Below the pieces are notes generated by a model that saw only the letters and a program-made list of their open reading frames with translations, was not told where the DNA came from and did no database searches. Positions 3,423 through 21,859 of a stretch of DNA of 42,239 nt are shown here, one piece after another (the stretch's first letter is position 1; every line of letters begins with the position of its first letter). The DNA lies in the UHGV virus genome UHGV-0380056; one strand, written 5' to 3'. The position numbers and the translations under genes were made by a program. The DNA comes from a virus.

Positions 3423-3881
3423 CTATCCCTCAAACATTTTTGCAAATGGGTCAAGTACTTCTTTTTCTTTCTCTGCTGGAAGAATAATTTTCATTCTTGA
3501 ATTGATTGTTAACCCAAGGTCGTTGGTTGCCGTTTTAAGCTCTTTTGAGTAGGAGTTAACAATATCAACCAATGGATTCTTTTTACCGTCTGGAGTGATT
3601 GCACCTTCCATATCTAAACGTTCCACAGCCTCTGCATACAAATATGTGTAATTACAATAGCGGATCATAGTATTCATATCTAGCTCGCTGATTGGTAAGT
3701 CGCCAATATATGAGCCAATACGTTGCCATTCATTAAATGCACCCTTCAATAATCCTGGTGGGAAGTAGCTGAAGTCTAGCTTCTCATAGTTATAAAGTAC
3801 TTCTTCTTCTTTTTCTTTTGCTTCTTTTTCTTCAATTGTTAAGTGTTTGCTAGTTGCATTCAAGAGCTTACGTGGTCTCAT
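3423..3881 (-). CDS. terS: terminase small subunit (P27-like family)
   Basis: 152 aa, positioned directly before TerL. Sequence is P27-family-like (….NPLVDIVNSYSKELKTATNDLGLTINSRMKI). Confidence 0.7.
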   Translation of the reverse strand: MRPRKLLNATSKHLTIEEKEAKEKEEEVLYNYEKLDFSYFPPGLLKGAFNEWQRIGSYIGDLPISELDMNTMIRYCNYTYLYAEAVERLDMEGAITPDGKKNPLVDIVNSYSKELKTATNDLGLTINSRMKIILPAEKEKEVLDPFAKMFEG

Positions 3882-3886
3882 AGTGA

Positions 3887-4432
3887 TTACACCTCCTTAT
3901 ATTTGAATATGTAGCCTTTTGTTTGCTTATAATTTCCGAGTAGGACTTGCCGTATGCCAGAAGGGTTTATTTTTAATCTCCTACCGCATTCATTAATACT
4001 ACGATACTCATTATACTCACCGTTTGCAATATCTATTGCAATAATGCTATTACTATTTTGAGTTTTACGTTGTGTAATTGATCGTCTATATAATGACGTA
4101 CCGTGATTAATATTTTCCTTAGATGTGACCCATTCTAAATTATCTAATGAATTATTTGTTTTATCCTCGTCAACGTGGTTTACTTGTGGTTTGTTTTCAG
4201 GATTTGGGATAAATGCTTCTGCTACTAAGCGGTGGATAGGTCGTTTTCTTTTTACACCGTTATTTGATAAGTGTACTCTTAAGTACCCATCCTTAGTTGG
4301 TATGGGTTTAAGTATCCGTTCAACTCTTAAGTTTCCTCTGCTATCATATCGTAGAAGTGCTTTAACTCTCCCAGTATTACTCACCTGATAAAGTCATTCA
4401 TATCCTTTAATATCTTTCCAAATTTCTTCCAT
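3887..4432 (-). CDS. HNH homing endonuclease (NUMOD4 + HNH_3) with an in-frame TGA at 4394..4396; the 165-aa ORF restarts at GTG 4384
   Basis: A strong AGGAGG ribosome-binding site precedes ATG 4432, giving [12 protein letters not shown], then TGA, then [11 protein letters not shown].... Its paralogues here read [27 protein letters not shown]_3 motif: [41 protein letters not shown]. Confidence 0.75.
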
Positions 4433-4488
4433 AGATAAAACCTCCTCTTTTATACTATTATAATAGCACACATAAAGGAGGTTGTCAA

Positions 4489-4674
4489 CTATTTTTGTTC
4501 GTCCGTCAATTCGATGATCTCGTAGTGACGATTACGTCCACCTAATTTCGTTTTAACATCCTTAAAATATCCACGCTTCTTTCCATAAAACTCATCAGCT
4601 TGAAATTGTGATTTAAACTTACGTGTTTGTCCTGTTGCCAAATCTTTCACGTACACTGGTTTTGGTGCAGGCAT
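4489..4674 (-). CDS. hypothetical protein (61 aa)
   Basis: ORF with a GGGAGG ribosome-binding site, downstream of a TGATATAAT extended -10 at about 4727..4737 on the minus strand. Confidence 0.45.
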   Translation of the reverse strand: MPAPKPVYVKDLATGQTRKFKSQFQADEFYGKKRGYFKDVKTKLGGRNRHYEIIELTDEQK

Positions 4675-4744
4675 TTATTCTACCTCCCTTATTGTATTGT
4701 TGAGCTAAAAGCTAACTCCCTTATACTTATAATTATATCATATA

Positions 4745-4776
4745 AAAAGAACCCTGTGTACAGAAACCAGGGTTCA
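4745..4776 (-). terminator. rho-independent terminator (minus strand)
   Basis: gaaccctg-gtttctgtaca-cagggttc hairpin, followed on the minus strand by a T5 run. Confidence 0.5.
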
Positions 4777-5013
4777 ATCTTGGTTATAGGGGGAACAATC
4801 GTATAAGTGAAATAACATACTATATATAGTATGAATCCTTGATTTTCAACACAAGAAACCAGATTTAAATCACGTTTACGAGGGGAAAATGACGTTTTTA
4901 AAAGTTGGTTTTGGGACTTTCATGCTAAGAAGAGACCTCAGCGATCCTGCTCCATGAAAAAGGTACGCCCCGTTAAAATATTTTACGCTGGTTAGAAAAT
5001 ATTTCTGGCTGAC
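4777..5013. other. ORF-free region between the packaging HNH and the terminase genes; candidate cos / terminase-recognition region
   Basis: No ORF on either strand. Contains an 18-bp perfect palindrome (4816..4833) and an imperfect 20-nt direct repeat ACA(G)AAACCAG..TT.AAATC at about 4758 and 4849. Sits in the HNH-cos-TerS position typical of HK97-like phages. Confidence 0.35.
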
Positions 5014-5403
5014 CTAAAAATTCTTGCCTCCAGTTTTCCAGCTGTAGCGATGTTCTTCTTTGTTATGACAGCTGTAACAGATTGATTCTAAATTATTCAT
5101 ATCTAATCTGTGTTCCCATCCATTTGGACTTCTTAGTTCAATAATATGATGAACCATGTCTGCTCTGGTTAACCTACCTTCATTGGCACATACCTCACAT
5201 AGAGGTGACTGCATAAGCTTAGCCTTACGAGTCTTACTCCATTGTGTGGATTTATAGAACGCATTATACTTAGCATTGAAGTCGTTACTCCTTACATGTT
5301 TATTGTACTGCTTATCTGATAAGCCTGAGTGCTTAGCACAATAGGTAGCTGGTAACTGCACTCTCTCTCTACACATTGGCGCTCCACATATTCGTTGTGG
5401 CAT
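5014..5403 (-). CDS. packaging-associated HNH endonuclease (HK97-type, needed with terminase for cos cleavage)
   Basis: C..C plus an HNH core: CEVCANEGRLTRADMVHHIIELRSPNGWEHRLDMNNLESICYSCHNKEEH. Located next to the terminase module. Confidence 0.8.
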   Translation of the reverse strand: MPQRICGAPMCRERVQLPATYCAKHSGLSDKQYNKHVRSNDFNAKYNAFYKSTQWSKTRKAKLMQSPLCEVCANEGRLTRADMVHHIIELRSPNGWEHRLDMNNLESICYSCHNKEEHRYSWKTGGKNF

Positions 5404-5450
5404 TATACTTACTCCTTTCTTCTATTATATAGTATAAGAAAAGACTACTA

Positions 5451-5654
5451 TTATTTAGTAGTCTTCTTTGTTTTACCTTTAGGTTCAATGATGTCTAAGA
5501 GTCCTTTGTCTTCTAACACCTGACGAGCAACCTTACTTGTATCTACGTTAAGTGTTAGGTCTGATGCTTTCTTAGGTGTATGGTTAATACAATACTTATC
5601 TGGTAGCTTAACTGTTTCATTACAGCCAGTGTGATTGCAGTACATATATGCCAT
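5451..5654 (-). CDS. small zinc-finger protein, a paralogue of the N-terminus of the HNH at 5014..5403
   Basis: YCNHTGCNETVKLPDKYCINHT aligns with ICGAPMCRERVQLPATYCAKHS of the HNH. Confidence 0.5.
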   Translation of the reverse strand: MAYMYCNHTGCNETVKLPDKYCINHTPKKASDLTLNVDTSKVARQVLEDKGLLDIIEPKGKTKKTTK

Positions 5655-5719
5655 TTATAATCCAACCTCCTTTAGTTTAATAGTTATACCATATAATTCA
5701 GTCATGGATAGCATTCCGT

Positions 5720-5887
5720 CTAGAATAGATAAGATGTTTTCTGTTTAACCAGTAGATCATTTGCTTTGACAATCTCAATAGCTTCCTCAAGTGTAATCTC
5801 TTTATTCGTTTTAGATGCTTCTAATTTACGATACTCTTCTAATAATTCAGTCTTGGTTAAAGATAATAATTGTTTGTCAGTCTTCAT
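5720..5887 (-). CDS. hypothetical small protein (55 aa, MKTDKQLLSLTKTELLEEYRKLEASK...)
   Basis: GGTGGA ribosome-binding site; ATGAAGACTGA overlap with the upstream ORF. Not in the ORF track because it is shorter than 60 aa. Confidence 0.3.
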   Translation of the reverse strand: MKTDKQLLSLTKTELLEEYRKLEASKTNKEITLEEAIEIVKANDLLVKQKTSYLF

Positions 5888-6035
5888 AAGTTAATTCCAC
5901 CATTCTGTCTTTAAGATATAGTAAAGCTTCATCAATATCATACGTACGTAATCCTTGTTGATAATTATCATTACATTTTTTGTCAACACAATACATGCCA
6001 GTTTCTTCATCTAACGTGATTTCAATCTTTTTCAT
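5877..6035 (-). CDS. hypothetical small CxxC protein (52 aa, MKKIEITLDEETGMYCVDKKCN...)
   Basis: AGGAGG ribosome-binding site; ATGA overlap with the stop of the 6032..6220 ORF. Confidence 0.3.
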   Translation of the reverse strand: MKKIEITLDEETGMYCVDKKCNDNYQQGLRTYDIDEALLYLKDRMVELTYED

Positions 6036-6220
6036 CTACCCTTACCTCCTAATAACCATGTCCATACGATAACCAGTTGTGCAATTGCAAAGCCCCAATC
6101 ACCTTGCTGAAATAATTGATATGGTAACTTCATGCCTAAATAGATAGCAATGTAACCAGAACCAATGATGGATACTACAACTAAAATGGTGCTCAATACA
6201 GCAAATAGTGTTTCTTTCAT
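6032..6220 (-). CDS. small membrane protein (62 aa, two transmembrane segments)
   Basis: GAGGAGGAG ribosome-binding site. First gene downstream of the leftward promoter. Confidence 0.5.
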   Translation of the reverse strand: MKETLFAVLSTILVVVSIIGSGYIAIYLGMKLPYQLFQQGDWGFAIAQLVIVWTWLLGGKGR

Positions 6221-6243
6221 TATATCTCCTCCTCTTTGTTTCT

Positions 6244-6290
6244 ATTATATCATAGATAAGGGATTGTGTGTGAACTGATTAGACCAGTTA
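6244..6290 (-). promoter_or_regulatory. leftward promoter with extended -10 (TGATATAAT) preceded by TCACACACAA
   Basis: Minus strand reads ttcacacacaatcccttatctaTGaTATAATagaaac, lying 25 nt upstream of the RBS of the 6032..6220 ORF. Confidence 0.45.
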
Positions 6291-6640: not shown

Positions 6641-6644
6641 TCTA

Positions 6645-6673
6645 TTGACAATGGTCTCTAAGCATGCTATACT
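6645..6673 (+). promoter_or_regulatory. consensus sigma-A early promoter TTGACA-17-TATACT
   Basis: TTGACA 6645..6650, 17-nt spacer, TATACT 6668..6673, followed by the conserved leader taattcataaagtaagaggagg. Confidence 0.6.
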
Positions 6674-6703
6674 TAATTCATAAAGTAAGAGGAGGAAACA
6701 ACA

Positions 6704-6940
6704 ATGACAACAATGACACATGAAAAATACAACGAACTACAAAAGAAAATGGACAAACTGGTTAGCGACTTCGTAGACGAAATGGCAGAAATTGAAAGCT
6801 ATGAAGATCTTGACATGACTTCAGAATGGTTAGACGAACAAATACATAACATTTTCAGATGGGCGAATACAAATGATGAAAAAGTTCTTGCTGAACTACA
6901 CGCTGACTATTCAAAACTAAATGAGATGTTAGAATGTTAA
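6704..6940 (+). CDS. hypothetical acidic early protein (78 aa)
   Basis: First early ORF after the promoter. Rich in D/E residues (MTTMTHEKYNELQKKMDKLVSDFVDEMAEIESYEDLDMTSEWLDEQ...). Confidence 0.5.
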   Translation: MTTMTHEKYNELQKKMDKLVSDFVDEMAEIESYEDLDMTSEWLDEQIHNIFRWANTNDEKVLAELHADYSKLNEMLEC

Positions 6941-7260: not shown

Positions 7261-7273
7261 AGGAGAAAAAAGA

Positions 7274-7746: not shown

Positions 7747-7757
7747 GAGGAAAAATA

Positions 7758-8737: not shown

Positions 8738-8770
8738 AGTATAGCACAAATAAAAAGTTTGTGCTATACT
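8738..8770 (+). promoter_or_regulatory. 13-bp inverted repeat AGTATAGCACAAA-N7-TTTGTGCTATACT embedding an extended -10 (TGcTATACT) for the HNH gene
   Basis: Perfect complementarity of 8738..8750 with 8758..8770. TATACT at 8765..8770, followed by the conserved leader aggtacataaataagagagg. Confidence 0.45.
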
Positions 8771-8799
8771 AGGTACATAAATAAGAGAGGAAGATTGAA

Positions 8800-9309
8800 A
8801 TGGAAGAGATTTGGAAAGATATTAAAGAATATGAAGGACTATATCAAGTAAGTAACTTGGGGAGAGTTAAGAGAGTTACAACAGGTAGAATTTTGAAAGG
8901 TAGTAAAGATAGAGGTGGGTATCTAGTAGTTAATTTATCTAAAAACAATAGTGGTTCTATGAAGAAAATTCATCGCCTAGTAGCTCAAGCGTTCATACCA
9001 AACCCAGAAAACAAAGCAGAGATTAATCATATAGACGAAGATAAGACAAACAACATGCTTTCAAATTTAGACTGGATGACGAGAAAAGAAAATAATAATC
9101 ACGGAACTAGAACAGACAGAATGGCTAAAACGCGAAGTATTCCAATCATTGCAATCAATCTAAAAACGAATGAATCTACAGAGTTCTATGGAGCTAGTGA
9201 ATGCGCTAGAAAACTAGGGTTACATCAACCAAGCATTACACATGTACTAAACGGCAGACGTAAACAAACTGGTGGATACACGTTTAAATATAAGGAGGAG
9301 CGGAAATAA
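8800..9309 (+). CDS. HNH homing endonuclease (NUMOD4 + HNH_3 + C-terminal DNA-binding module)
   Basis: [25 protein letters not shown]; [42 protein letters not shown]; C-terminal [13 protein letters not shown]. Confidence 0.85.
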   Translation: MEEIWKDIKEYEGLYQVSNLGRVKRVTTGRILKGSKDRGGYLVVNLSKNNSGSMKKIHRLVAQAFIPNPENKAEINHIDEDKTNNMLSNLDWMTRKENNNHGTRTDRMAKTRSIPIIAINLKTNESTEFYGASECARKLGLHQPSITHVLNGRRKQTGGYTFKYKEERK

Positions 9310-10895
9310 TGAATGAACTAACGAAAATTGACTATTCAGCACCAGTTGAAGAGTTACTACCAGTTTCAAATAAAAACTTTCCAAGTGAGGAGTTTGTGGA
9401 TTTCAAATCAGAGCTAGGACGAATGTACTATGGAGGAAAAGACGGCACACAACCAAAATTTGAGATTCAACAGGAATTATTTATTGATAAATTTAACCAA
9501 CTAGCATATGTGTACGCTCACCCTAACTTAAACGCGCCATACGTATACAATGCAGACACACGTATCTGGTCTGAGGTAAATCTAGGTAGTTACAAATATT
9601 CAGATTGGTATTTTGAGAACATTTTATCACCAAAATTCACACCACAATTCAGAAACCCAGAGTTTGGGAATGAAATTCGTAAGGAAATGAAGAAATTAGC
9701 ACCTGAATTGGCTAATCGCTCTATGACACGTGGAGAACAGGCACCACTAGGTGACAACCCTAACCCTAACATTATCGCATTTGAGAATGGCACGTATGAC
9801 TTTAAAACAAATGACATTCGTGAAACAAGGTTGGAAGATTATCATACACTTCAACTACCATATCCTTTAATTAAGACAGATGAAACAGATGAATTACTAG
9901 CTAAACAATGGATTGATTATTTGCTGAAAGACCAAGCCCAGACATTATATGAGTATATTGGGTACATGTATTATAGAGAGTACAAATATCAATCTATTTT
10001 ATACCTATTAGGTAATGGTTCAAATGGTAAATCTTACGTTGGGGGGTTTATCATGAACAAATTAATTGGGTTCAAAAACAGTTCAGCAGTTGGCCTAGAC
10101 AATTTAGCAGATAAGAGCAACCGTTTTGATAAAGCTTCATTACACCATAAATTATTGAACTTTGAAGCTGATTCAAGTGCAAACTTTGTAAAAGGTACTG
10201 AGACACTGAAAAAACTTTCAGGTGGTCTTGATGCTGTTCACGCTGAGAAAAAAGGAAAAGATGCGTTTAGTTTTACCAATTATGCAAAACTAATGTTCTC
10301 AATGAATGAGCTGCCAGCCTTTAACGACCGCACAAATGGATGGTATAGACGTATTCTTATCCTAAACTTTAACACTAATCTTGATACACCAGAAGCACGT
10401 GAACGCATTAATGAGTTCAACAAACAACGTGAGGAACGTGAGTCAAAAGAGCAACTAGGTAAATTTGCATGGTTCTGTATTCAACAATTTAAAAAGATTT
10501 TAGACGCTGGTACAAATGGTGAAAACCCATTCACAGAGACAGAAGATATGATTGCCTTCAAGAAAGCTTACATTGAATCAAATGACCCATCTAAAGAGTT
10601 TTTGAGTGAAGTACCTGTCATTGTGGAAGATGAAGAAGGAACCGTTAACCTAACACTATTGAAGAATATTTTTAACGTGTACACGAAAGAGAATAATATT
10701 AATAAGTCAATGAACTGGCGCACCATGAAAGAATTATTATTGAAGCAAGGCTTTGAGGAAAAACGGACAAGTAAAGCACGAGTACTAACTGGTCTAAAGA
10801 TTGCACGTAATGGAGATGCTGACGCGGTTAAACCTTATCTAATGAACGCACTAGCAGGGACAGAGTATGTAAATATTTTCAATGATGTAGAATAG
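9309..10895 (+). CDS. DNA primase-helicase (D5 N-terminal / P4-type SF3 ATPase)
   Basis: Walker A YLLGNGSNGKSY, with a downstream Walker B / D5-like region. Confidence 0.7.
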   Translation: MNELTKIDYSAPVEELLPVSNKNFPSEEFVDFKSELGRMYYGGKDGTQPKFEIQQELFIDKFNQLAYVYAHPNLNAPYVYNADTRIWSEVNLGSYKYSDWYFENILSPKFTPQFRNPEFGNEIRKEMKKLAPELANRSMTRGEQAPLGDNPNPNIIAFENGTYDFKTNDIRETRLEDYHTLQLPYPLIKTDETDELLAKQWIDYLLKDQAQTLYEYIGYMYYREYKYQSILYLLGNGSNGKSYVGGFIMNKLIGFKNSSAVGLDNLADKSNRFDKASLHHKLLNFEADSSANFVKGTETLKKLSGGLDAVHAEKKGKDAFSFTNYAKLMFSMNELPAFNDRTNGWYRRILILNFNTNLDTPEARERINEFNKQREERESKEQLGKFAWFCIQQFKKILDAGTNGENPFTETEDMIAFKKAYIESNDPSKEFLSEVPVIVEDEEGTVNLTLLKNIFNVYTKENNINKSMNWRTMKELLLKQGFEEKRTSKARVLTGLKIARNGDADAVKPYLMNALAGTEYVNIFNDVE

Positions 10896-10907: not shown

Positions 10908-11405
10908 ATGAAAGAAATTTGGAAAGATATTGAAGGATATGAAGGAGTTTATCATGTGAGTAACTTAGGACGAGTGAAGAGAGTTGCAACAAATAGAGTT
11001 TTACAACCATATAGAAACAAAGTTGGCTATTTACTAGTTTATTTATGTAAAAACGGTAAGCGTAAAACTCATAGAATCCACCGTTTAGTAGCACAATCTT
11101 TCATACCAAACCCAGAAAATAAACCAGAAGTTAATCACCTAGACGAAAATAAGATTAATAACATGGTTTCAAATCTAGAATGGTCAACTAGAAAAGAAAA
11201 CTGTAACTATGGAACACGTAATGAAAGACTTAGTATCCCAATTATAGCAACTAAGCTAAAGACTGGTGAATCTAGAGAGTTCTATGGAACTAATGAATGT
11301 GCTAGAAAACTAGCGTTAAATAATGCACACATTACAAGTGTTCTAAAAGGTAGATTGAAACAAACAGGTGGATACACATTCCAATATAAGGAGGAAGAAG
11401 GATGA
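10908..11405 (+). CDS. HNH homing endonuclease (NUMOD4 + HNH_3)
   Basis: MKEIWKDIEGYEGVYHVSNLGRVKRV; [28 protein letters not shown]; C-terminal KQTGGYTFQYKEEEG. Confidence 0.85.
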   Translation: MKEIWKDIEGYEGVYHVSNLGRVKRVATNRVLQPYRNKVGYLLVYLCKNGKRKTHRIHRLVAQSFIPNPENKPEVNHLDENKINNMVSNLEWSTRKENCNYGTRNERLSIPIIATKLKTGESREFYGTNECARKLALNNAHITSVLKGRLKQTGGYTFQYKEEEG

Positions 11406-12787: not shown

Positions 12788-13477
12788 ATGTATATAGTAT
12801 ATTTACATGTTAACAGAGTAAACAATAAAAAATATTTTGGAATAACGTCACAAAATCCACTGAAGAGATGGAATAATGGAAAAAATTATAGTAGTAAGCA
12901 TTTTAAAAACTCAATATTAAAATATGGGTGGGAAAATTTCAATCACTTTATTATAAAATAAGGATTAACAAAAACGGAGGCGTGTCTACTAGAGATTAAG
13001 TTGATTAATAAATATAATACTACAGACCAGCAATATGGATATAACATATCTGTAGGAGGTGACTGTCCAGCAAGAGGTATGAAACATTCCAAAGAATTTA
13101 AAGAGCAACAGAGTGTACGTAGTAAAAATATAAATTGGACATTAGAAAAGAGGAGTAATATCAGTAAAGGTCTTAGAAATCACTATTTAATGCATGAGTC
13201 ACCATTAAAAGGTAGACCTCAGTCATCTGAACACATTAAGGCTAGAAGCGAGGCACTACGTGGTAGAAAAATATCAGTTGATACACGAGATAAAATATCT
13301 AAAACATTAGGTGGGAGATTATTCAAAGCTACTAATATTGAAACAGGAGAGGTGATATATAGTCACAATCAAACGGCAACAGCTAAAAAGCTTAATGTGC
13401 GTAGAACAGGGCTGAGAAGATGTTTAAACAACGAGCAAAAACAAACAGGGGGCTACACTTTTGAATATGCAAAATAA
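12788..13477 (+). pseudogene. GIY-YIG homing endonuclease interrupted by an in-frame TAA (12959..12961). The N-terminal GIY-YIG fragment is 12788..12961; the remainder is the TTG-start ORF 13001..13477
   Basis: The N-terminal fragment reads MYIVYLHVNRVNNKKYFGIT...KYGWENFNHFIIK, then a stop, then GLTKTEACLLEIKLINKYNTTDQQYGYNISVGG. This is colinear with the intact GIY-YIG at 38358..38915 (YGWDNFNHFIIVDKLTKDEADSLEIKLIQAYDTTTTGYNICHGG). The C-terminal module ends QKQTGGYTFEYAK, like the HNH family. Confidence 0.7.
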
Positions 13478-14771
13478 AATAGGTAAAGTAGAACTTCTTC
13501 CACATCAAGTTGAAGCTATTGAATTATCTGATAAAAAGAATTTTGACTTATCATCCGCTGGAACTGGAAAAACGTACTCAGCACTGGGTGCTTATTTGAA
13601 AAGTGGATGTAGTAAATTATTAGTGGTCTGCTTAGCCCCTAAAGTAGCTGATTTTGCAGAAGATGGTAACTTAATGGGAATTACCATTACCCCGTTAAAC
13701 AAAGGAACTGCTAAAAATAAAAAGTTATTATCAGAATCAGATAGAGTAGCCATTAGTTTTGAGAGTAGTTGGCGCTTAACTGATTTGTTGAAATGGGTTA
13801 ACAACGATACTTATATTTTAATTGATGAAAGCCATAAGGTCTCAGTACCAAAATCAAAAGTAACTAAATTCATGATGAGCTTATGTAAAAAGACCACTCA
13901 TGTTAGATTATTAACCGCAACCCCAGTAGCAAACGGAAAACTAGAAAACTACTATAGTCAATTATATATGTTAAATGTGTTCCGCAAGCCAAAAAAAGAG
14001 TTCTATGAGTTATTCGTAACTGAACGCATGCAACAAATGGGATCCGCTAGATTCATGCAGATTATTGGTTACCGCAACGAGCACTTATTGAAACAAATGA
14101 TTGATAAAGTAAGTGTTAGGTATGAACGTGATAAACCATATATGCCACAAGATTTTTATTATAAGACCAAAAAGCCTGCGTTTTATAATAAATTAAAGAA
14201 AGTCAGAATGTACAAAGACGACCTAGATAATATTATTGAGCTAGACAATAGTAGTAAATTATTTAACGCACTGCGTCAAGTATCACATGGTTTTCTTAAA
14301 GGTGTACACAAACAGGTGTCTAAAGAACCGTTTGAGCGTTTACAAGCAGTACTAGAAGAATACAGTGGTGAACGAGTGGTCATATTTTATAATTACAACG
14401 CAGAGTTTTATATGATTTCAGAACTGTTAAATAAACTAAAAAGACCGTACAGTAGTTATAATGGAAATAATAAAGATTTGACTAATTTCAAAGACTATGA
14501 TAATGGAGTGGTTTTAGCCCAATATAAAAGTGCGAGTACAGGTATCAATAGCTTGAAAATAGCTAGTGTATGCGTATTCAATTCTATGCCATTAAGTTCT
14601 ACAGACTATATTCAGGCAAAAGCTAGAGTTGATAGATTTGGTCAGGAGCGTACACCTAACTTTATCCACATTATTCCAGATACACCCATTGAGAAAAAGA
14701 TATTTGAAACAGTCACAAATGGAAAAGATTTTACAAATGAAATGATTGAAAGTGTTGACAAGTATAGCTAA
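13461..14771 (+). CDS. SF2 DNA helicase (DEAD/DEAH or SNF2-like)
   Basis: LPHQVEAIE; Walker A SAGTGKTY; DESH box LIDESHKV; motif VI QAKARVDRFGQ. Confidence 0.7.
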   Translation: MNMQNKIGKVELLPHQVEAIELSDKKNFDLSSAGTGKTYSALGAYLKSGCSKLLVVCLAPKVADFAEDGNLMGITITPLNKGTAKNKKLLSESDRVAISFESSWRLTDLLKWVNNDTYILIDESHKVSVPKSKVTKFMMSLCKKTTHVRLLTATPVANGKLENYYSQLYMLNVFRKPKKEFYELFVTERMQQMGSARFMQIIGYRNEHLLKQMIDKVSVRYERDKPYMPQDFYYKTKKPAFYNKLKKVRMYKDDLDNIIELDNSSKLFNALRQVSHGFLKGVHKQVSKEPFERLQAVLEEYSGERVVIFYNYNAEFYMISELLNKLKRPYSSYNGNNKDLTNFKDYDNGVVLAQYKSASTGINSLKIASVCVFNSMPLSSTDYIQAKARVDRFGQERTPNFIHIIPDTPIEKKIFETVTNGKDFTNEMIESVDKYS

Positions 14772-14784
14772 TCATGCTATACTT
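14755..14784 (+). promoter_or_regulatory. consensus promoter TTGACA-17-TATACT whose spacer and -10 form a 9-bp inverted repeat (AAGTATAGC-N7-GCTATACTT)
   Basis: TTGACA at 14755..14760 (inside the end of the helicase CDS). TATACT at 14778..14783, followed by the conserved leader ttgtacataaataagaggagg. Confidence 0.5.
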
Positions 14785-14815
14785 TGTACATAAATAAGAG
14801 GAGGTATTAAATACT

Positions 14816-15352
14816 ATGGAGGAACAGTGGAAAGATATACCGTTATTAAGTAGATATCAAATAAGTAGCTTGGGTAGAGTTAAATCAAAACAAAGAACTA
14901 CTAAATGCAACAAAGGGGTTATAAATAGAAAAGAAAGACTTATGACACCTCAATTAAGAGGTAAAAAAGGGTATGAATATGAGTGTATTAGATTGAAAAC
15001 AGATTTAGGATATACCAAATATTACAGTATCCATCGTCTAGTAGCTCAAGCATTCATACCAAATCCTGAAAACAAACCAACAGTAGACCATATCAATCGT
15101 GATAGGCTAGATAATAGGGTTAAAAATTTAAGATGGGCAACATATGAGGAACAGCAGTCTAATAAAATAGTTTCAACAGGACAAGCAAAGATACCTGTAA
15201 AAGCTATTGATAAATCAGGTAATGTATATTATTATGATGGTGTTATAGAAGCATCAAAAGCGTTGGATGTTGACACTGGAACAATATGTAAAGTACTATC
15301 TAATAAGTATATTAATAAAACAGGTGGAGGTTATTATTTTGAAAAAAATTAA
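14816..15352 (+). CDS. HNH homing endonuclease (HNH_3)
   Basis: [38 protein letters not shown]-terminus ...[10 protein letters not shown]. Confidence 0.8.
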   Translation: MEEQWKDIPLLSRYQISSLGRVKSKQRTTKCNKGVINRKERLMTPQLRGKKGYEYECIRLKTDLGYTKYYSIHRLVAQAFIPNPENKPTVDHINRDRLDNRVKNLRWATYEEQQSNKIVSTGQAKIPVKAIDKSGNVYYYDGVIEASKALDVDTGTICKVLSNKYINKTGGGYYFEKN

Positions 15353-16088
15353 ACGATTACGAATTAAGAAAAACGCAAAGTCACCACTGGTGGCAGGAGC
15401 ATTCCAAGGTGAAGATGATCAATTAGTTGATAAATGGATAGCAGAAGGAGGAAATGTAGCCTATGCTACTGGACAAACAAGTGGTATTGCGGTAATAGAC
15501 ATTGATAATCACAATGGAGTAGATGGGCTTAGTAACTTGAAAGAGTTCTTGGATACTTATGATATTGAGTTACCAAAAACTAAAGTTGTTAGGACACCAA
15601 GCGGAGGTTATCATTACCATTTTAAACTTGATGATAAATATAATGACGTACAATTCATTCAAAATCATTCTCAACTAGAAGGAGTTGATTTTCAAACACA
15701 TGGCAGAATAGTATTAGCACCACCTAGTCAAATTGACGGAAAGTATTATGAAGTAGTGCGTGACGTAGAACTCGCAGAACTACCTGAGAAATGGTTAGAA
15801 ATGTTCACAGATAAAACGATTACAAAAAAGAATAAGAAGCGCGAGAAGAAATGGACTGGTCAATTAATGGAAAGTATACTTACTGGTGCAGGCGCTGGGT
15901 CAAGAAATATATTTTTAGCCTCAACAATCGGTAAGCTATTCGCAACAGGAATGGATCATGACGCGGTTAGGGTATGGAGCTTATATGTAAACCAGATTTC
16001 ATTAAATCCACCACTACCAGAAGAGGAGGTGTTAAGAACATATGAATCAGTTAGAAAGCGTGAATTACGAAGAATGGCGGACGATTAA
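15337..16088 (+). CDS. primase-polymerase (PrimPol / archaeo-eukaryotic primase-like domain), probably TTG start
   Basis: [12 protein letters not shown]...[13 protein letters not shown]...[17 protein letters not shown]. The Shine-Dalgarno GGTGGAGG is provided by the HNH 3' end. Confidence 0.65.
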
Positions 16089-16578
16089 AGGATATGAAGG
16101 TAGATATGAGGTTAGTAACTTAGGTAGAGTTAGAAGTTTAAATTACAATAACCAAAAAGGAAATATAAAAGTTAGACCAAGTGTTCCTCATAAACATGGG
16201 TATAGACAAATTAAACTAGGTAATAAAAGCAAATTAATCCACCGTCTAGTAGCAGAAGCATTTATCCCAAACCATGAAAATAAACCTTGTGTTAATCATC
16301 TGGACGAGGATAAGACAAATAATAGAGTTGATAACTTAGAATGGGTAACAAAGAAAGAAAATAACAATTATGGTACTAAGAATATTAGAAGCGCATACAA
16401 GAATAAATACATTTCTGGAAACTTCAAATCCGTAAGTTGCTCAAATGGAGTAGAGTATTTTAGTGTGTCAGAAGCTTGTCGTCAATTAGATTTAGACCCA
16501 AGTACTGTCGTAAAAATTCTAAAAGGTACACGTAAAAGTACTAGAGGCTACACCTTTAAATATAAGGAGGAAGAGTGA
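16042..16578 (+). CDS. HNH homing endonuclease (NUMOD4 + HNH_3)
   Basis: [21 protein letters not shown]; [28 protein letters not shown]; C-terminal [12 protein letters not shown]. Confidence 0.85.
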
Positions 16579-16778
16579 TGGATAAACAATTATTTAACAC
16601 TGAGTTTAAAAATGGATATTGCGTAACAGTAGTCAGTCAATCAAGATTTGAGTTAAAATACCATGTAGAAGTTTTCCATGTTTCTGACCCACACGATATC
16701 CATAGGGTTGATTTTCATTCAGCACGTGAGGTTTTTGGATATTTATCAGATATTCAAAATTATAAACAAAAAGACTAG
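16575..16778 (+). CDS. hypothetical protein (67 aa)
   Basis: ORF whose Shine-Dalgarno comes from the HNH 3' end (tataaggaggaagagtgATG). Confidence 0.45.
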
Positions 16779-16918: not shown

Positions 16919-17320
16919 ATGTTTAAAATTGGAGATAAAGTTACAGTAACGGAATACAGCAATAAGAGTTATATTGGACTGCAAGGTTTCATAACTGACA
17001 TAAATCACACCATTTATCCAATAAGAGTATACTTAGGTGAAGAAGGGTTTCACTCCTTTAATCCGCAACAGTTAACCCCTTACAATAAAAATAATGAAGA
17101 TGAAGAACTACAAAACACCAAACGTTACAGAACCAACTCAGGTAAACAACTCTTTGACATATTAGAAGATGATTTACTAACATATGAAGAATTACGTGGT
17201 TTCTACAAAGCGAACATTTACAAATATACACATAGATATAAACAAAAGAACGGCATTGAAGATTTGAAAAAAGTCAAGGTCTATGTAGACCAACTAATAA
17301 AATTGGAGGAAAAGAAATGA
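16919..17320 (+). CDS. hypothetical protein with an N-terminal KOW/SH3-like barrel and a C-terminal DUF3310-like region
   Basis: MFKIGDKVTV... and a C-terminal motif ...LTYEELRGFYKANIYKYTHRYKQKNGIEDLKKVKVYVDQL. Confidence 0.45.
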   Translation: MFKIGDKVTVTEYSNKSYIGLQGFITDINHTIYPIRVYLGEEGFHSFNPQQLTPYNKNNEDEELQNTKRYRTNSGKQLFDILEDDLLTYEELRGFYKANIYKYTHRYKQKNGIEDLKKVKVYVDQLIKLEEKK

Positions 17321-17790
17321 TTAACTTTGAACAACTGTCGCCCCCATATGACAAATACTCAGTAACAAATGAGGGGCATGTGATGGATATTGACACAGGC
17401 GTGTATGTGAAGGAAGAGATTGATTATAAATCAGGTAAACAATATGTTGTACTACATGGCTCACATACGAAATCACGTAAGTTTTTTATAGCGCCAATAG
17501 TTGCAGAAATGTTTGTACTGAACAAACACAACCTTGGTTACGTGTATTATAAAGATGGAAACGTTCAGAACAACCATGCTGATAACTTGGGGTATGCTAT
17601 CAATCCTAAAGAAGCGCAACAAAGAGTAGCACGTCCTCACAGATTAGAGGTAGAGGATGAACGACACGAACTCATTATAAAAATAAACAACGCTTGTGAT
17701 AAAAAGGACTATAGAGAAGCTAATCGCCTGGGTAAAATACTATGGGAATTGGAAGGAAGTTCATATAATGACAGACATGAAGAAGTTTGA
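17317..17790 (+). CDS. HNH_3-type endonuclease, divergent (157 aa)
   Basis: YYKDGNVQNNHADNLGYA resembles the H-N-N-L core of HNH_3. Confidence 0.5.
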   Translation: MINFEQLSPPYDKYSVTNEGHVMDIDTGVYVKEEIDYKSGKQYVVLHGSHTKSRKFFIAPIVAEMFVLNKHNLGYVYYKDGNVQNNHADNLGYAINPKEAQQRVARPHRLEVEDERHELIIKINNACDKKDYREANRLGKILWELEGSSYNDRHEEV

Positions 17791-18532
17791 TTTTGACATA
17801 CATTACACAGGAAGCAAAGGAAATTCAGTTTCAATCTATTATGGTAATTTAGGATTTTTAATTGACATTGGTAAACCATATAAATATATTGAACCACACT
17901 TATATGACAAACAATTTATTTTAATATCACACGTTCATGGTGACCATCTTGTCTATACAACATACAAGAAGATTAGAGAGAACTTTCCACATATCAAGAT
18001 TTTATCTAATAGTACAGTTAATGAAGCACTAATCAAACGTAAATTACCAGATGTAGATATTATCTTCAAAGATGACTTCCAATTTAAAATTGGAGATGTT
18101 AAATTTACAACTCTACAAAATTATCATGGATCAGGAGAAGACTTCACTGATACACATGGTTTCATACTAGAAAGTCCTTCACAGAATTTGATTTATGCAA
18201 CTGATTTAAGTCAATTGGTAGATTATGAAACATATCTATTGACAAACAACTTAAAACTTGATATAGTATTACTAGAAGCTAACTATGACCCTAAAGTCAT
18301 TGAATTCTATGAGGCAACAAAAACACATACAGGATATGATGTTTTCAGCAACGGAAGTTATAGACATTTAGATACTGAACAAAGAAAACTTTTTGTTGAC
18401 AAGTTTGGAAATATAGGGTATACTGATGTAGAGCTTCACCAATCAGCAACATACAGAACGTTTGATGGATTGATTAAAAAATCAAAAGGAAAAATATCTA
18501 AAAAAGATGTTGACAATTATTTAACTAGGTAA
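17768..18532 (+). CDS. metallo-beta-lactamase-fold hydrolase (nuclease-like)
   Basis: ILISHVHGDHLV, the HxHxDH motif. GGAAGGA ribosome-binding site before ATG 17768. Confidence 0.6.
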   Translation: MTDMKKFDFDIHYTGSKGNSVSIYYGNLGFLIDIGKPYKYIEPHLYDKQFILISHVHGDHLVYTTYKKIRENFPHIKILSNSTVNEALIKRKLPDVDIIFKDDFQFKIGDVKFTTLQNYHGSGEDFTDTHGFILESPSQNLIYATDLSQLVDYETYLLTNNLKLDIVLLEANYDPKVIEFYEATKTHTGYDVFSNGSYRHLDTEQRKLFVDKFGNIGYTDVELHQSATYRTFDGLIKKSKGKISKKDVDNYLTR

Positions 18533-18543
18533 TATACTTAGTT
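18510..18543 (+). promoter_or_regulatory. consensus promoter TTGACA-17-TATACT with a 21-bp near-palindrome (AACTAGGTAATATACTTAGTT) centred on the -10
   Basis: TTGACA at 18510..18515; TATACT at 18533..18538; conserved leader tagttcataagataaagaggagg. Confidence 0.5.
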
Positions 18544-18568
18544 CATAAGATAAAGAGGAGGAAGAATA

Positions 18569-18835
18569 ATGAAATATATTGGAAATGGATTATGTGAGAG
18601 CGGTCAGAGTGGATTGAATAAGTATTTTATTATAGGTATGGAAGTTAAGTCTAGCACTGAAGAAGTAAATGTTTGTTGGGGCAAAATACCTTACCTGTTA
18701 AAATATAGATTCAAACTTATCAATATTGTAACAGGCAAGATTTTAGAAGTAGATGCTAGTAGTTACGCAACACGTAAAGAACACAACGGTGTTGAAAATT
18801 ATATTGATATTAAATTTGAGGAGGAAACAAAATGA
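18569..18835 (+). CDS. hypothetical protein (88 aa)
   Basis: ORF with a GAGGAGG ribosome-binding site. Confidence 0.45.
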   Translation: MKYIGNGLCESGQSGLNKYFIIGMEVKSSTEEVNVCWGKIPYLLKYRFKLINIVTGKILEVDASSYATRKEHNGVENYIDIKFEEETK

Positions 18836-19059: not shown

Positions 19060-19280
19060 TGAAAAAATATACTGTAAAAGAATTAGCACATTTATTAGAT
19101 GAGTACTATATAGGTATCACATTTAGTGACGATTACAGCGCATGGTCAAGTCTTGAAATGTTTGTTACAATGCAAGAAGTAATTGATAAATATGGTGAAC
19201 ATACGATTAAATGGATTAGTTTTTATGGTTCAGAAGATGAGAATTATCAAGTAATTAGATTGGAAGGTGACAGGGAATGA
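19056..19280 (+). CDS. hypothetical protein (74 aa)
   Basis: ORF with GTGATGA overlap. Confidence 0.4.
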   Translation: MMKKYTVKELAHLLDEYYIGITFSDDYSAWSSLEMFVTMQEVIDKYGEHTIKWISFYGSEDENYQVIRLEGDRE

Positions 19281-19444
19281 ATTATAAAACACTTTTAAAA
19301 TTGGACTATGGATACACTGAAAACCAGTTGTTTGATGTGATTGAGAAATATGTGTGGCTTTTAAAAATAAATTATACAATTGCAGAACTCTTTGCAGTAG
19401 AGTATAAACGTCTTAAACTGAAGGATGAAGAGAATGGTATTTGA
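19277..19444 (+). CDS. hypothetical small protein (55 aa)
   Basis: ATGA overlap with the upstream stop. Below the ORF-track cutoff. Confidence 0.25.
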   Translation: MNYKTLLKLDYGYTENQLFDVIEKYVWLLKINYTIAELFAVEYKRLKLKDEENGI

Positions 19445-20240
19445 ATTATCAATTCAAACTAACGGAACACAAGAAATTCAATTTCTTGGCTATGAGAAAA
19501 CTTTGAATGATGTTAGGAGGTTGTCAGAACGTATGAAAACGCAAGAGGTTACAGAAGAAAATGCAATAGAAAATAAAAAACTTCTTGCTGAGGTACGTAA
19601 AGAAATTAAAAAATTAGATGCAGAACGTTTGGCAGTAAAGCGTGAGATTATGACACCTTATGATGAATTGAATGAAAAGATTAAGCTATTAAAAGAGGTG
19701 TTGTTTGAAGGTGAGGAACATATTAATGCACAAATTAAAGAGATTACCACAAGGCAACAAGAACAACGTAAGTTACAAATCAAAGACTTATTTAAAAAAT
19801 ATCAGAAGTCATATAACGCTCCACAATGGCTTACTTTTGATAAGTTTTTAGCAAAAAACCAAACTCTGATAACCAATAAAGCAACAAGTGCTAAAAAGAT
19901 ACGTGAATCAGTGGTTTCTTATTTTGAAACATTTAAACAGGATTATGATATGTTAAAAACACAATATCCTGATAAAGACGATCGTTCAGCTATTTTGATT
20001 GCCTACTCTAAAAATGGCTTTAATATGCAAGAAGCTATTTTAGACTATACAAGTATGATTGCTGAGAAAGAACGTCTTGAAAAAGAACAGGCTAGAGTAA
20101 AAGAAACCAAAGTACCTGACATTGTCATACTAACTGGAAACGAGCAAAAACAGGAAGCTCCCAAGCCAGTTGAATATGTGACAATTAAGATTAAGAAAGA
20201 AGACTTGAAGAAACTTAAAATTGATTATGAGATACTTTAA
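19425..20240 (+). CDS. hypothetical K/E-rich coiled-coil protein (271 aa). Start uncertain: 19425 or 19434
   Basis: Long ORF with a coiled-coil composition. Confidence 0.45.
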   Translation: MKRMVFELSIQTNGTQEIQFLGYEKTLNDVRRLSERMKTQEVTEENAIENKKLLAEVRKEIKKLDAERLAVKREIMTPYDELNEKIKLLKEVLFEGEEHINAQIKEITTRQQEQRKLQIKDLFKKYQKSYNAPQWLTFDKFLAKNQTLITNKATSAKKIRESVVSYFETFKQDYDMLKTQYPDKDDRSAILIAYSKNGFNMQEAILDYTSMIAEKERLEKEQARVKETKVPDIVILTGNEQKQEAPKPVEYVTIKIKKEDLKKLKIDYEIL

Positions 20241-20264
20241 TATCACACACAAGTAAGGGAATAT

Positions 20265-20277
20265 ATGATATAATAGA
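20265..20277 (+). promoter_or_regulatory. extended -10 promoter TGATATAATAGA preceded by TCACACACAA (same pair of elements as the leftward promoter at 6244..6290)
   Basis: tcacacacaagtaagggaatataTGaTATAATaga. Confidence 0.4.
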
Positions 20278-20321
20278 TTTTGTAAGAGAGAAAATAAAAC
20301 AAATTAATTGGAGGAATTAAA

Positions 20322-21014
20322 ATGTCAGAATTGAAAAAAGTAATTATTGTTAGCTCAGAGGAAGATGATATTAGTGTGAAATTACAGGTAGCCAGTGAGG
20401 ATTATAGTGCTATCTATGAAGCAGCAGTGTTTAAACAAACATATGATAAAGACTCTAAAACGTGGAAAGACTTTACAGATGAAGACACAAAAGGTAAAGA
20501 ACGCTTAGCTAAAGCCTTAGAACTTTTAGGTGGATCATTTGAAAATCTTGAAGATAAAGAGTTAGAAATGTATGTAGACGAAGTAACAGGCAAAGCCTAT
20601 TTTGAAGAAGGTACATCATTTAAGAAGATTGAGAAACCATTAGTCTCACTGAAACGCTTGAAGCAAGTACCGATTGTTGAAATTAAAGATTCAGCAAAAG
20701 GACGTGCTGTGATCGTAGAACATGACGGTAAGTATTACTCATTTAACTTCAACTCAGGAGTATATATTGAGAAATTAAATAAATTTATTCCTAATCAAGC
20801 GAAACTTGCAAAAGCTAAGGCACGATTTAATGAGTTGTTTGAAGATGTAAATATCACGTGGGATACAGCAGAAATGGCAGTTGGAATGGTGGTTGATTGT
20901 ACAGTTAATAAGAACATGTTGGATCCAAAATCACAATATGGATGGTTAGAGGCACAACCACTTGATCCAGACGATCAAAAAGAAGTCGTAACAGAAGATG
21001 AATTACCGTTTTAA
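20322..21014 (+). CDS. hypothetical acidic protein (230 aa)
   Basis: ORF with a GGAGGA ribosome-binding site. Confidence 0.45.
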   Translation: MSELKKVIIVSSEEDDISVKLQVASEDYSAIYEAAVFKQTYDKDSKTWKDFTDEDTKGKERLAKALELLGGSFENLEDKELEMYVDEVTGKAYFEEGTSFKKIEKPLVSLKRLKQVPIVEIKDSAKGRAVIVEHDGKYYSFNFNSGVYIEKLNKFIPNQAKLAKAKARFNELFEDVNITWDTAEMAVGMVVDCTVNKNMLDPKSQYGWLEAQPLDPDDQKEVVTEDELPF

Positions 21015-21018
21015 AATA

Positions 21019-21057
21019 AATGTAAAAGAAGTTGACTTAATGGTTGACTTCTTTTTT
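21019..21057 (+). terminator. imperfect hairpin plus T6 (weak terminator)
   Basis: aagaag...cttctttttt flanking a TTGAC-N7-GTTGAC direct repeat. Confidence 0.35.
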
Positions 21058-21062
21058 ATACA

Positions 21063-21071
21063 TGATATACT
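21063..21071 (+). promoter_or_regulatory. extended -10 TGATATACT with the conserved leader for the HNH gene
   Basis: catgaTATACTtagttcataagatgaag. Confidence 0.4.
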
Positions 21072-21105
21072 TAGTTCATAAGATGAAGAATAGGAGAAGA
21101 TAAAA

Positions 21106-21639
21106 ATGAATGAAATTTGGAAAGATATTGAAGGATATGAAGGGTTGTACCAGGTTAGTAATTTGGGGAGAGTTAAATCTTTTGATAGTATAGATAAGTT
21201 AGGTAGAATACGTAAAGGTAGAGTTTTGAAAGGTATTAAAGATGTAAAAGGGTATCTACTAGTTAACTTATATAAAAACAGTATTGTATACACTAAGAGA
21301 CTTCATCGTTTAGTAGCAGAGACATTTATCCCAAATTCAGAAAACAAACCGCAAGTTAATCATATTGACGAGAATAAGGCAAATAACATAGTTTCAAATC
21401 TTGAATGGATGACTGCTAAGGAAAATATTAATCATGGAACACGTAATGAAAGAATGAGTAGAACGCAAAGTATTCCAATCATTGCAACTAATATCAAAAC
21501 AGGTGAATCTCAAGAGTTCTATGGAACAGCTGAATGTGCTAGACAATTAGCTTTGCATCACGGAAATATCACATCAGTTCTAAAAGGTAATCGTAATCAC
21601 ACTGATGGTTACACATTCAAATATAAAGGAGTAGAGTAA
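21106..21639 (+). CDS. HNH homing endonuclease (NUMOD4 + HNH_3)
   Basis: MNEIWKDIEGYEGLYQVSNLGRVKS; [28 protein letters not shown]; C-terminal TDGYTFKYKGVE. Confidence 0.85.
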   Translation: MNEIWKDIEGYEGLYQVSNLGRVKSFDSIDKLGRIRKGRVLKGIKDVKGYLLVNLYKNSIVYTKRLHRLVAETFIPNSENKPQVNHIDENKANNIVSNLEWMTAKENINHGTRNERMSRTQSIPIIATNIKTGESQEFYGTAECARQLALHHGNITSVLKGNRNHTDGYTFKYKGVE

Positions 21640-21640
21640 T

Positions 21641-21859
21641 ATGACAATCAAGATTGGAAACGTAGTAGAACTTAAAGACGATAATCTAAACGGATTAGGC
21701 AATAAAGAAGATAAAGGTGTGCTGTTGTATAAGTTGTACAATCCAGTTGATGGTTGGGATTACATGATCCGTCTTTATTCTGGATCAACAGAAGCATTTC
21801 TAGAAAAAGATTTAAAATTAGGAGTAAAAACAATTGACAAAGTGAACCTAACATGGTAA
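21641..21859 (+). CDS. small KOW/SH3-like protein (72 aa)
   Basis: MTIKIGNVVELKD.... The Shine-Dalgarno comes from the HNH 3' end (tataaaggagtagagtaatATG). Confidence 0.45.
   Translation: MTIKIGNVVELKDDNLNGLGNKEDKGVLLYKLYNPVDGWDYMIRLYSGSTEAFLEKDLKLGVKTIDKVNLTW

Follow-up and report, generated by a model that had tools for sequence, protein, structure and literature searches.

Shine-Dalgarno motifs preceding phage genes lie within the last codons of homing endonuclease genes in an Enterococcus siphophage

This study examined how homing endonuclease genes (HEGs) adjoin the genes behind them in the virus genome UHGV-0380056, which was analyzed over its entire length of 42,239 nucleotides (nt; hereafter the window). 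The window is that of an Enterococcus faecium siphophage and exhibits patchy DNA identity of 81-90% to siphophages of approximately 42 kb infecting Enterococcus faecium or E. faecalis, including IME-EFm1, IME-EFm5, KEN20, Bp29, Aramis, and EF36P1. In seven of its eight HEGs, the next gene's Shine-Dalgarno (SD) sequence lies within the HEG open reading frame (ORF), and the signal carried there is translational rather than a promoter. Six of the ORFs, HNH0 to HNH5, contain the NUMOD4, HNH_3, and I-HmuI_NUMOD-like architecture, with all Pfam matches above the gathering threshold except that of NUMOD4 in the truncated HNH0. HNH1 aligned with I-HmuI (PDB 1U3E chain M; E = 8.4e-26) over residues 5-165 on residues 3-171, the alignment stopping at ...GYTFKYK. 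Domain content and alignment assign these six ORFs to the I-HmuI-like HNH HEGs, and they would be expected to home. I-HmuI is intron-encoded; the HEGs of the window are free-standing, each of the six sites being occupied in some of nine related Enterococcus phages and empty in others, in genomes that are otherwise collinear and have homologous flanks. Two GIY-YIG genes carry a C-terminal module as in the HNH ORFs, one of them split by a stop codon. The HEGs are as follows (protein tails are written up to the stop codon here and below).

3887-4432, minus strand: HNH0, an I-HmuI-type HEG upstream of TerS, decayed (Pfam, upstream sequence, promoter scan).
8800-9309, plus strand: HNH1, an intact HEG of the I-HmuI type whose tail reads YKEERK (Pfam, 1U3E alignment).
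10908-11405, plus strand: HNH2, an intact HEG between primase and orf11402 (Pfam).
12788-13477, plus strand: a GIY-YIG HEG before the helicase gene, decayed by a stop at 12959-12961, with the NUMOD-like 3' module ...QTGGYTFEYAK kept (Pfam).
14816-15352, plus strand: HNH3, an intact HEG upstream of PrimPol (Pfam).
16042-16578, plus strand: HNH4, an intact HEG with the tail YKEEE (Pfam).
21106-21639, plus strand: HNH5, an intact HEG ending in YKGVE (Pfam).
38358-38945, minus strand: a GIY-YIG HEG in the tail module, the exception, which does not abut the next gene and is followed by a 61-nt gap with TATAAT.

The density of HEGs in this phage is approximately one per 5 kb. In HNH0, 12 codons are followed by an in-frame TGA at 4394-4396 (GGA changed to TGA), and the ORF lister takes GTG 4384 as a new start; the gene may be either dead or re-initiated at that GTG. 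A promoter-like site (TTGACA-17-TATTAT, 4488-4460, minus strand), the SD of HNH0, and its junction with TerS are all intact. The SD of HNH2, TAGGAG, makes use of the primase stop codon, and the first 47 nt of HNH4 overlap the 3' end of PrimPol. Two more HNH-like genes of other types, at 5014-5403 (minus strand) and 17317-17790 (plus strand), are found in all or most relatives; counting these, approximately 10 of the roughly 70 genes in the window are endonuclease-like.

Seven HEGs stop between -17 and +5 nt of the start of the next gene, and the SD of that gene is located in the last codons of the HEG. The original prediction had described this arrangement at six junctions; we read all six directly in the sequence and they bear it out, and the split GIY-YIG gene at 12788-13477, which overlaps the start of the helicase gene, adds a seventh. 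The junctions are as follows.

9292-9311, plus strand: HNH1 to primase, TAT AAG GAG GAG CGG AAA TAATG; SD AAGGAGGAG at 9292-9300, TAATG at 9307-9311, ATG at 9309.
11388-11405, plus strand: HNH2 to orf11402, TAT AAG GAG GAA GAA GGATGA; SD AAGGAGGAA at 11388-11396, ATGA at 11402-11405, ATG at 11402.
16564-16580, plus strand: HNH4 to orf16578, TAT AAG GAG GAA GAG TGATG; SD AAGGAGGAA at 16564-16572, TGATG at 16576-16580, ATG at 16578.
21625-21643, plus strand: HNH5 to orf21641, TAT AAA GGA GTA GAG TAA T ATG; AAAGGAG at 21625-21631, TAA at 21637-21639, ATG at 21641, gap of +1 nt.
3879-3898, minus strand: HNH0 to TerS, TAT AAG GAG GTG TAA tcact ATG; SD AAGGAGGTG at 3890-3898, read as K-E-V.
15323-15341, plus strand: HNH3 to PrimPol, SD GGTGGAGGT (G-G-G codons) at 15323-15331, TTG at 15339-15341, 14-nt overlap.
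13448-13472, plus strand: GIY-YIG to helicase, GGGGGC (G-G codons) at 13448-13453, start at TTG 13461 (F-E codons) or ATG 13467, 17-nt overlap.

The first five junctions are hereafter called tail-type and the last two overlap-type. At four of the tail-type junctions the HNH genes end in TAT AAG GAG G... and at the fifth in TAT AAA GGA G..., and the start codon follows 7-10 nt past the purine run; stop and start meet as TAATG, ATGA, TGATG, TAA-t-ATG, and TAA-tcact-ATG. In the last of these, the HNH0 stop (TAA, 3887-3889) and the TerS start (ATG, 3881-3879) are separated by +5 nt. The downstream start codons are backed by N-termini shared with the nine relatives. Two positions given in the original prediction required correction: the PrimPol TTG lies at 15339-15341 and not at 15337, and the junction described for an ORF at 16575 is real, its start more likely being the in-frame ATG at 16578, before which relatives have CTG, ATA, or GTG. 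Ribosomes presumably initiate at the HEG ends, and translation of the downstream gene may be coupled to that of the HEG. The junctions kept behind the interrupted ORFs (HNH0 and the GIY-YIG gene at 12788-13477) argue indirectly against a strict dependence on upstream translation, as does the ordinary predicted accessibility of the SD described below.

We compared the junctions with those of the nine relatives, all complete genomes, in which the orthologue of each downstream gene was located. The original prediction had reasoned that an SD present in endonuclease-free relatives would pre-date insertion, and such an SD was found at every site, at the same distance from the start codon in the HEG-free alleles. 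Before primase, PrimPol, and orf21641, the HEG-free SD lies in a conserved promoter-leader module. Before orf11402, it forms part of the final primase codons (...caaTAGGAGGAA; ...caaTAGGAGGAAacagaATG; TAGGAGGAAGTAGAATG), and before orf16578 part of the PrimPol tail, which reads RRMEEE in RG1 (GGAGGAAGAATGATGG) and RRMEED in IME-EFm5. The HEG-free TerS site reads AAGGAGGAG-TGATAAC-ATG within a 60-codon ORF ending in APKEE or APKED. On the TerS side, an identical stop and spacer, AAGGAG(GAG)TGATAACATG, closes the HEG in Aramis and a small ORF in the HEG-free IME-EFm5. The spacer between SD and start agreed at 6.7 of 9 positions in the best match between occupied and HEG-free alleles of the same site, compared with 4.9 of 9 at other sites, and three identities were complete (9/9). 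The spacer is specific to the site and common to occupied and HEG-free alleles. Because HEG-free relatives carry the SD at the same spacing, the SD at the five tail-type sites is probably the recipient gene's own.

The promoter-leader module has the form TTGACA-17-TATACT-(tagt)-CATAA(a/g)(t)AAGAGGAGGA-spacer-ATG, or more briefly TTGACA-17-TATACT...CATAA..AAGAGGAGG, and is repeated ahead of several early or middle genes.

6645-6706, 8765-8799, 14755-14818, 18510-18571, and 24861-24898: copies of the module; a more diverged copy lies at 21044-21105.
8765-8799, plus strand: promoter -10 and leader with SD before HNH1 (TATACT aggtaCATAAATAAGAGAGGAAgattgaa), located directly before primase in HEG-free relatives.
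14755-14815, plus strand: promoter, leader, and SD before HNH3 (TTGACA-17-TATACT ... CATAAATAAGAGGAGG), which drives PrimPol in HEG-free relatives.

HNH1 and HNH3 sit between the module and the gene that it serves in HEG-free relatives; the host promoter module at 8765 now drives HNH1 and that at 14755 drives HNH3; HNH5 follows the diverged copy at 21044-21105. A 13-bp inverted repeat at 8738-8770 (AGTATAGCACAAA...TTTGTGCTATACT) holds the -10 element of the HNH1/primase promoter, is kept in HEG-free relatives, and scores as a terminator-like hairpin on the minus strand. This repeat could be a bidirectional terminator/promoter or an operator.

At the two overlap-type sites, codons of the endonuclease itself make up both the SD and the start. 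HNH3 ends in ACA GGT GGA GGT TAT TAT TTT GAA AAA AAT TAA, with the TTG inside the TTT GAA codons, and the whole HNH3 clade natively ends in GGGYYFE(K/R)N. The ancestral PrimPol ATG, present in 8 of 9 relatives, has been replaced here by ATT at 15348-15350, which overlaps the HNH3 stop (AAT TAA); because of this replacement, PrimPol must use TTG 15339. In EF36P1, which is HEG-free at this site, the PrimPol leader reads ...AGA GGA GGA TAT TAT TTT GAA AGA AAT TAA (GGYYFERN) and contains the same TTG start (approximately 24044-24075 of L003, minus strand). This leader is a fossil of an HNH3-type 3' end that now serves as the gene's permanent initiation region, and the allele fits a loss of the HEG through a deletion running from the upstream SD (AGAGGAGG) to GGTGGAGG of the HEG.

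The split GIY-YIG gene before the helicase ends in GGYTFEYAK, and in helicase variants that have no ATG close by, both the TTG and the frame are preserved (MNTQNKIGK..., MNIPNKIGK...). The helicase site is occupied by a GIY-YIG HEG in Bp29 and BUCT630 (intact) and in the window (split), and by an HNH HEG in EF36P1 and IME-EFm1 (helicase-site loci: L002 26960-27649; L005 38438-39127; L003 25415-25903; L008 33978-34463). The 3' module ...GGY(T/V)FEYAK and the junction are common to the GIY-YIG and HNH occupants, which looks like a swap of nuclease domains on a fixed DNA-binding and junction module. A search of IMG/VR with the pattern GGAGGNTAYRYNTTTGAATA returned 16 matches, ten of which are a HEG 3' end followed by a long ORF from the embedded TTG; seven of these ORFs encode a helicase, one an MBL-fold hydrolase, and one a DNA polymerase. 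In Leuconostoc phage phiLN12 (L097, 670-706), the RefSeq start of the DNA polymerase is the embedded TTG, with a 17-nt HEG overlap. The G-G-Y-x-F-E-Y/TTG junction precedes the DNA polymerase gene of Leuconostoc-type phages as well as an MBL-fold hydrolase gene on another Enterococcus-type contig (L097, L110, L116), which brings the different host genes with an embedded TTG start to four. When the G-G-Y-x-F-E motif of the C-terminal DNA-binding module is written as GGA GGN TAY NNN TTT GAA, it contains GGAGG and, 8 nt later, an out-of-frame TTG. The protein motif sets this ideal 8-nt spacing and would therefore be a latent initiation region if the codons are GGA GGN and TTT GAA. As judged from these sequences, the HEG 3' end truly supplies the initiation region of PrimPol and helicase. 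A promoter-like match, TTGACA-18-TACTAT (10/12), also occurs inside HNH3 at 15270-15299, approximately 40 nt upstream of the PrimPol start; the match is weak, and promoter-like matches in the AT-rich window barely exceed the shuffle expectation (109 vs 86). If real, it would be an embedded promoter in the manner of phage T4.

We then considered how far the arrangement is peculiar to HEGs, with gap counts that rest on rough gene calls made for the whole window. The SD core was located in the last codons of the upstream gene in 15 of the 17 non-HEG same-strand pairs with a gap of 5 nt or less. The tails holding it (IMEEEE, MNWEEE, KLEEKK, FEEETK, LLKEEL, and VEESYE) mostly use the same E-E frame. 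An SD in the upstream tail is a general packing rule of this SD-dependent, gene-dense phage and is not specific to HEGs. AAGGAGG occurs 13 times in the window vs 2.8 expected, but nearly all genes of this phage have an SD.

Two ideas on how the tail SDs might act found no support. One was that the SD is masked by RNA structure until ribosomes translating the HEG open it; the predicted unpaired probability of the SD zone was 0.45-0.68 at the HEG junctions vs 0.56 +/- 0.18 for 45 other genes, so accessibility is ordinary. The other, that a HEG keeps a weak SD for itself and leaves the strong SD to the host gene, was rejected; the duplex energy of pairing with the 16S tail was -12.1 kcal/mol for the HEGs' own SDs vs -11.0 kcal/mol for those of the downstream genes (n = 28).

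The original prediction had further held that the protein C-terminus is conserved as K-E-E. The tails instead vary by site (KEV, KGVE, LNEGVD, or K alone before the stop), and K-E-(E) is what AAG GAG G gives when read in frame; across the sites, the in-frame reading of the SD yields K-E-E, K-E-V, or K-G-V. Among the 120 closest homologues, the endings past FKY include KEESN, KEV, KGVE, K, KEEIK, KE, KEERK, LNEGVD, NGGYN, and others; these residues follow the insertion site, yet always contain an SD. In HNH5, one extra A shifts the SD by 1 nt and turns K-E-E-E into K-G-V-E while AAAGGAG is kept. The homologue L092 has its own stop directly after FKYK, and the SD lies in the next 15-nt spacer. 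AAG accounts for 25% of the Lys codons and GAG for 28% of the Glu codons in the genome, and AAG GAG is used in all four K-E tails; because these rare codons are used there, selection would have acted at the RNA level. A K-E-E tail was absent from 68 non-redundant viral loci (36-76% identity), whose endings are diverse and mostly without an SD. A family-wide K-E-E tail was therefore ruled out; it occurs only in Firmicute phages that are SD-dependent and tightly packed, and not in all of those.

A protein role for the tail was weighed against these data, namely that K-E-E forms an acidic C-terminal extension for folding, DNA binding, or regulation of the endonuclease and resembles an SD only incidentally. 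Lys165, which belongs to the YK pair, is shared with I-HmuI, and to that extent the motif is constrained at the protein level. Nevertheless, the Pfam domain and the I-HmuI alignment both stop at ...FKY(K); the residues past this point vary freely, down to K or KE before the stop; HNH5 changed the residues and kept the SD; the codons are minority codons; and the same tails occur in unrelated genes. We consider this explanation scarcely credible. The K-E-E tail appears to reflect SD-driven codon choice and not a conserved protein feature.

Taken together, the findings probably mean that the motifs are the working SDs of the downstream phage genes, placed inside HEG ORFs that reach or enter the next start codon; they would be the recipient's own at tail-type sites and HEG-supplied at overlap-type sites. 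We hold this reading with fair confidence, and what it builds on was observed directly, namely the anatomy of the junctions, the comparison with relatives, and the codon bias. As each of these HEG ORFs extends to the next start codon or overlaps it, the SD must fall in the last codons of the HEG. At the tail-type sites (primase, orf11402, orf16578, orf21641, and TerS), SD and spacer would constitute the recipient's initiation region, the same whatever gene lies upstream, and the HEG ORF would read through this block to the first stop, overlapping or abutting the start codon. At PrimPol and helicase, the conserved G-G-Y-x-F-E codons would give the SD, and the host gene would start at the embedded TTG. 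Initiation would be of the ordinary SD-dependent kind, possibly helped by termination-reinitiation. HEG 3' ends would then not be deletable without harm to an essential gene, a constraint that we infer from the arrangement. The claim that the endonuclease supplies the translation initiation signal is therefore supported at PrimPol and helicase, where HEG codons form SD and TTG, and is doubtful or unlikely at the five tail-type sites, where the SD looks like the recipient's own; to read the arrangement as a solution to the polarity problem is reasonable.

Several observations weigh against a recipient origin of the tail-type SDs and favor the strong form of the original prediction, in which the mobile cassette ends in a dedicated SD module (...FKY-K-E-E), an adaptation restoring downstream translation, so that the SD arrives with the HEG and replaces or duplicates that of the host. 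All tail-type HEGs share TTY AAA TAT AAG GAG G in one frame (four sites, with a 1-nt shift at orf21641, the fifth), as fits a heritable SD at the HEG 3' end. L090, a close HNH1 homologue, keeps TAT AAG GAG GAA TCA AAC TAA (KEESN) with no start codon behind it; the next gene, a primase of the IME-EFm1 type, lies 72 nt off with its own promoter and SD. This orphan AAGGAGG tail indicates that the tail can travel with the gene, and the tail is common to 19 of the 120 closest homologues. Occupied alleles carry two SDs and HEG-free alleles one; in the occupied primase, PrimPol, and diverged orf21641 alleles, the upstream SD belongs to the repeated host promoter-leader module, so the downstream SD is the extra one. 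The SD consensus is present at both insert borders, and sequence alone cannot assign the host copy to either. Gaps of 5 nt or less occur on the 3' side of 7 of 8 HEGs vs 17 of the 55 remaining same-strand pairs (Fisher p = 0.004), an excess that plain packing does not predict; the tight abutment is confined to this side, the 5'-side gaps being 12-104 nt bar one 47-nt overlap. PrimPol and helicase, moreover, show beyond reasonable doubt that a HEG 3' end is able to supply an initiation region.

Against a HEG-borne SD stand the HEG-free relatives with SD and spacer in the same position, including identical SD-spacer-start blocks behind non-HEG genes. E-E tails are equally found in non-HEG genes, the HEG tails depend on the site, the wider family (36-50% identity, 68 loci) is without K-E-E, and in L092 the stop precedes the SD. 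The HEGs' own 5' SD and spacer, GGAGGTTTTATTT-ATG, are conserved across sites, so the extra SD could equally be the 5' copy. A general HEG-borne SD is thus possible but doubtful, and a dedicated module of this kind at the five tail-type sites appears unlikely.

The borders of the inserts suggest a further explanation, in which the SDs at both HEG ends are mainly recombination microhomologies, HEGs being gained and lost at gene starts by crossover in GGAGG-rich SDs with a secondary translational role. Both borders of the orf11402 insert fall inside an SD, the left after TAGGAG (TAGGAG/attttatttATG, the slash marking the border) and the right before AGGAGG (TATA/AGGAGGAAG). The EF36P1 PrimPol allele is the expected product of a AGAGGAGG-GGTGGAGG deletion, and a 13-nt direct repeat, AAGGAGGAATCAA, brackets the L090 HEG (1480-1503 and 1993-2010), one copy being its own SD/spacer and the other the KEESN tail. 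However, function requires SDs at both positions, and selection alone suffices to keep them; the left border of the TerS-site insert lies within a coding region and not in an SD; the orf16578 scar was joined at TTAAA rather than in an SD; and HEGs are known to spread by double-strand-break repair with long flanking homology (PMC2988022). A related idea, that the host initiation region is duplicated on insertion, was also rejected as a general rule, and the same test counts against microhomology: cognate 5'/3' pairs matched at 5.7 of 12 positions vs 5.9 for non-cognate pairs (permutation p = 0.83), with the L090 repeat an isolated case beside it. We regard a mainly recombinational origin of the border SDs as improbable.

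Under the preferred reading, decayed HEGs and HEG-loss alleles would retain their 3' ends because deletion would harm an essential gene. The 3' junctions are intact in the decayed HNH0 and the split GIY-YIG gene, and the truncated HEGs of KEN22 and BUCT630 still contain the terminal SD. In EF36P1 (L003, approximately 23276-23340) and IME-EFm1 (L008, approximately 31707-31770), a 21-codon mini-ORF lies between PrimPol and the orf16578 homologue. It consists of the first 16 codons of the HEG (...EWRTIK, over the PrimPol 3' end) joined in frame with the last five (YKEDN), and in EF36P1 it reads MKVCVSVNYVEWRTIKYKEDN up to the stop. The join is at the TTAAA microhomology, an internal deletion that leaves both constrained junctions.

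A broader proposal would extend this to a class of elements, with the NUMOD-like C-terminal module of I-HmuI-type HNH and GIY-YIG HEGs acting as a dual-coding, portable initiation cassette (G-G-Y-x-F-E codons or K-E-E tail) that avoids polarity before essential genes; its ends would be non-deletable and kept in decayed or scar alleles, and SD repeats at the borders would assist ectopic gain and loss. As a whole, this proposal seems to us rather unlikely.

Host expression signals embedded in HEGs have been described for the free-standing seg and mob genes of phage T4, in which, for example, the middle and late promoters of gene 32 lie in segG, and embedded promoters of downstream genes have been argued to favor HEG retention (PMC2988022); the kept HEG ends described above run parallel to that argument. 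The same review treats stop/start overlaps and possible translational coupling (PMC2988022). The window resembles T4 in that a free-standing HEG lies between host genes and the signals of a downstream essential gene lie inside the HEG ORF. It differs in that the embedded signals in T4 are promoters and the overlaps occur at the HEG's own start (nrdA/mobE, UAAUGA) (PMC2988022), whereas here the downstream SD is embedded and, at two sites, also the start codon and first codons, within conserved codons of the DNA-binding domain. The arrangement thus parallels, at the level of translation, the promoters that lie inside T4 seg and mob genes.

The HEGs also resemble the I-HmuI family and the Skunavirus HNH genes in having the same domain architecture, with clear similarity to I-HmuI (PDB 1U3E). 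According to a report on lactococcal Skunavirus phages, free-standing I-HmuI-like HNH endonucleases vary in number and position among close phages, and copies cluster by insertion site; the report makes no mention of ribosome-binding sites or coupling to downstream genes (PMC12724721). SDs that lie at the 3' end of an upstream gene or in its stop codon, and ATGA or TGATG overlaps with coupling, are described as widespread in compact prokaryotic and phage genomes (PMC2784483, PMC6728339, PMC12548453). The geometry is identical, the SD being placed 5-10 nt ahead of the start codon and within the ORF that precedes it, and the mechanism is not different. This phage is particular only in having a mobile, selfish gene as the upstream ORF, which affects gain, decay, and loss. 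Our literature search retrieved no paper describing this SD arrangement for homing endonucleases; it returned just the T4 review, which deals with embedded promoters, along with general papers on SDs in upstream genes.

The arrangement would explain how a phage with many HEGs keeps its replication and packaging genes expressed, the HEG lying between promoter or leader and start codon, with the ribosome-binding site in its last codons. For annotation, endonuclease residues past ...FKY would be treated as an RNA signal and not as protein, and a TTG start within ...GGYTFEY codons would be taken as valid where a helicase, PrimPol, polymerase, or hydrolase gene follows. In the engineering of therapeutic Enterococcus phages, HNH deletions would have to leave the last 20-30 nt. 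If the overlap-type design was selected and is not accidental, it would be a clean case of dual coding by which a mobile element is bound to a host gene; of all the features described, the G-G-Y-x-F-E/TTG junction and the HEG fossils deserve further attention.

Junctions between a HEG and the next gene in phages of other Firmicutes were as follows.

Listeria LP-110: no abutment between the HEG and the gene behind it.
S. thermophilus CHPC1027: the HEG does not abut the next gene.
Lactobacillus T25: overlap of 8 nt with a weak SD.
Lactococcus JG8: W-R codons (TGG AGA) ahead of an ATGA overlap with sak.
Staphylococcus Zeno: HEG tail KLEEK, with GGAGGA and TAATG.

Judged from these sequences, the arrangement appears to be common, although not universal, in Firmicute phages.

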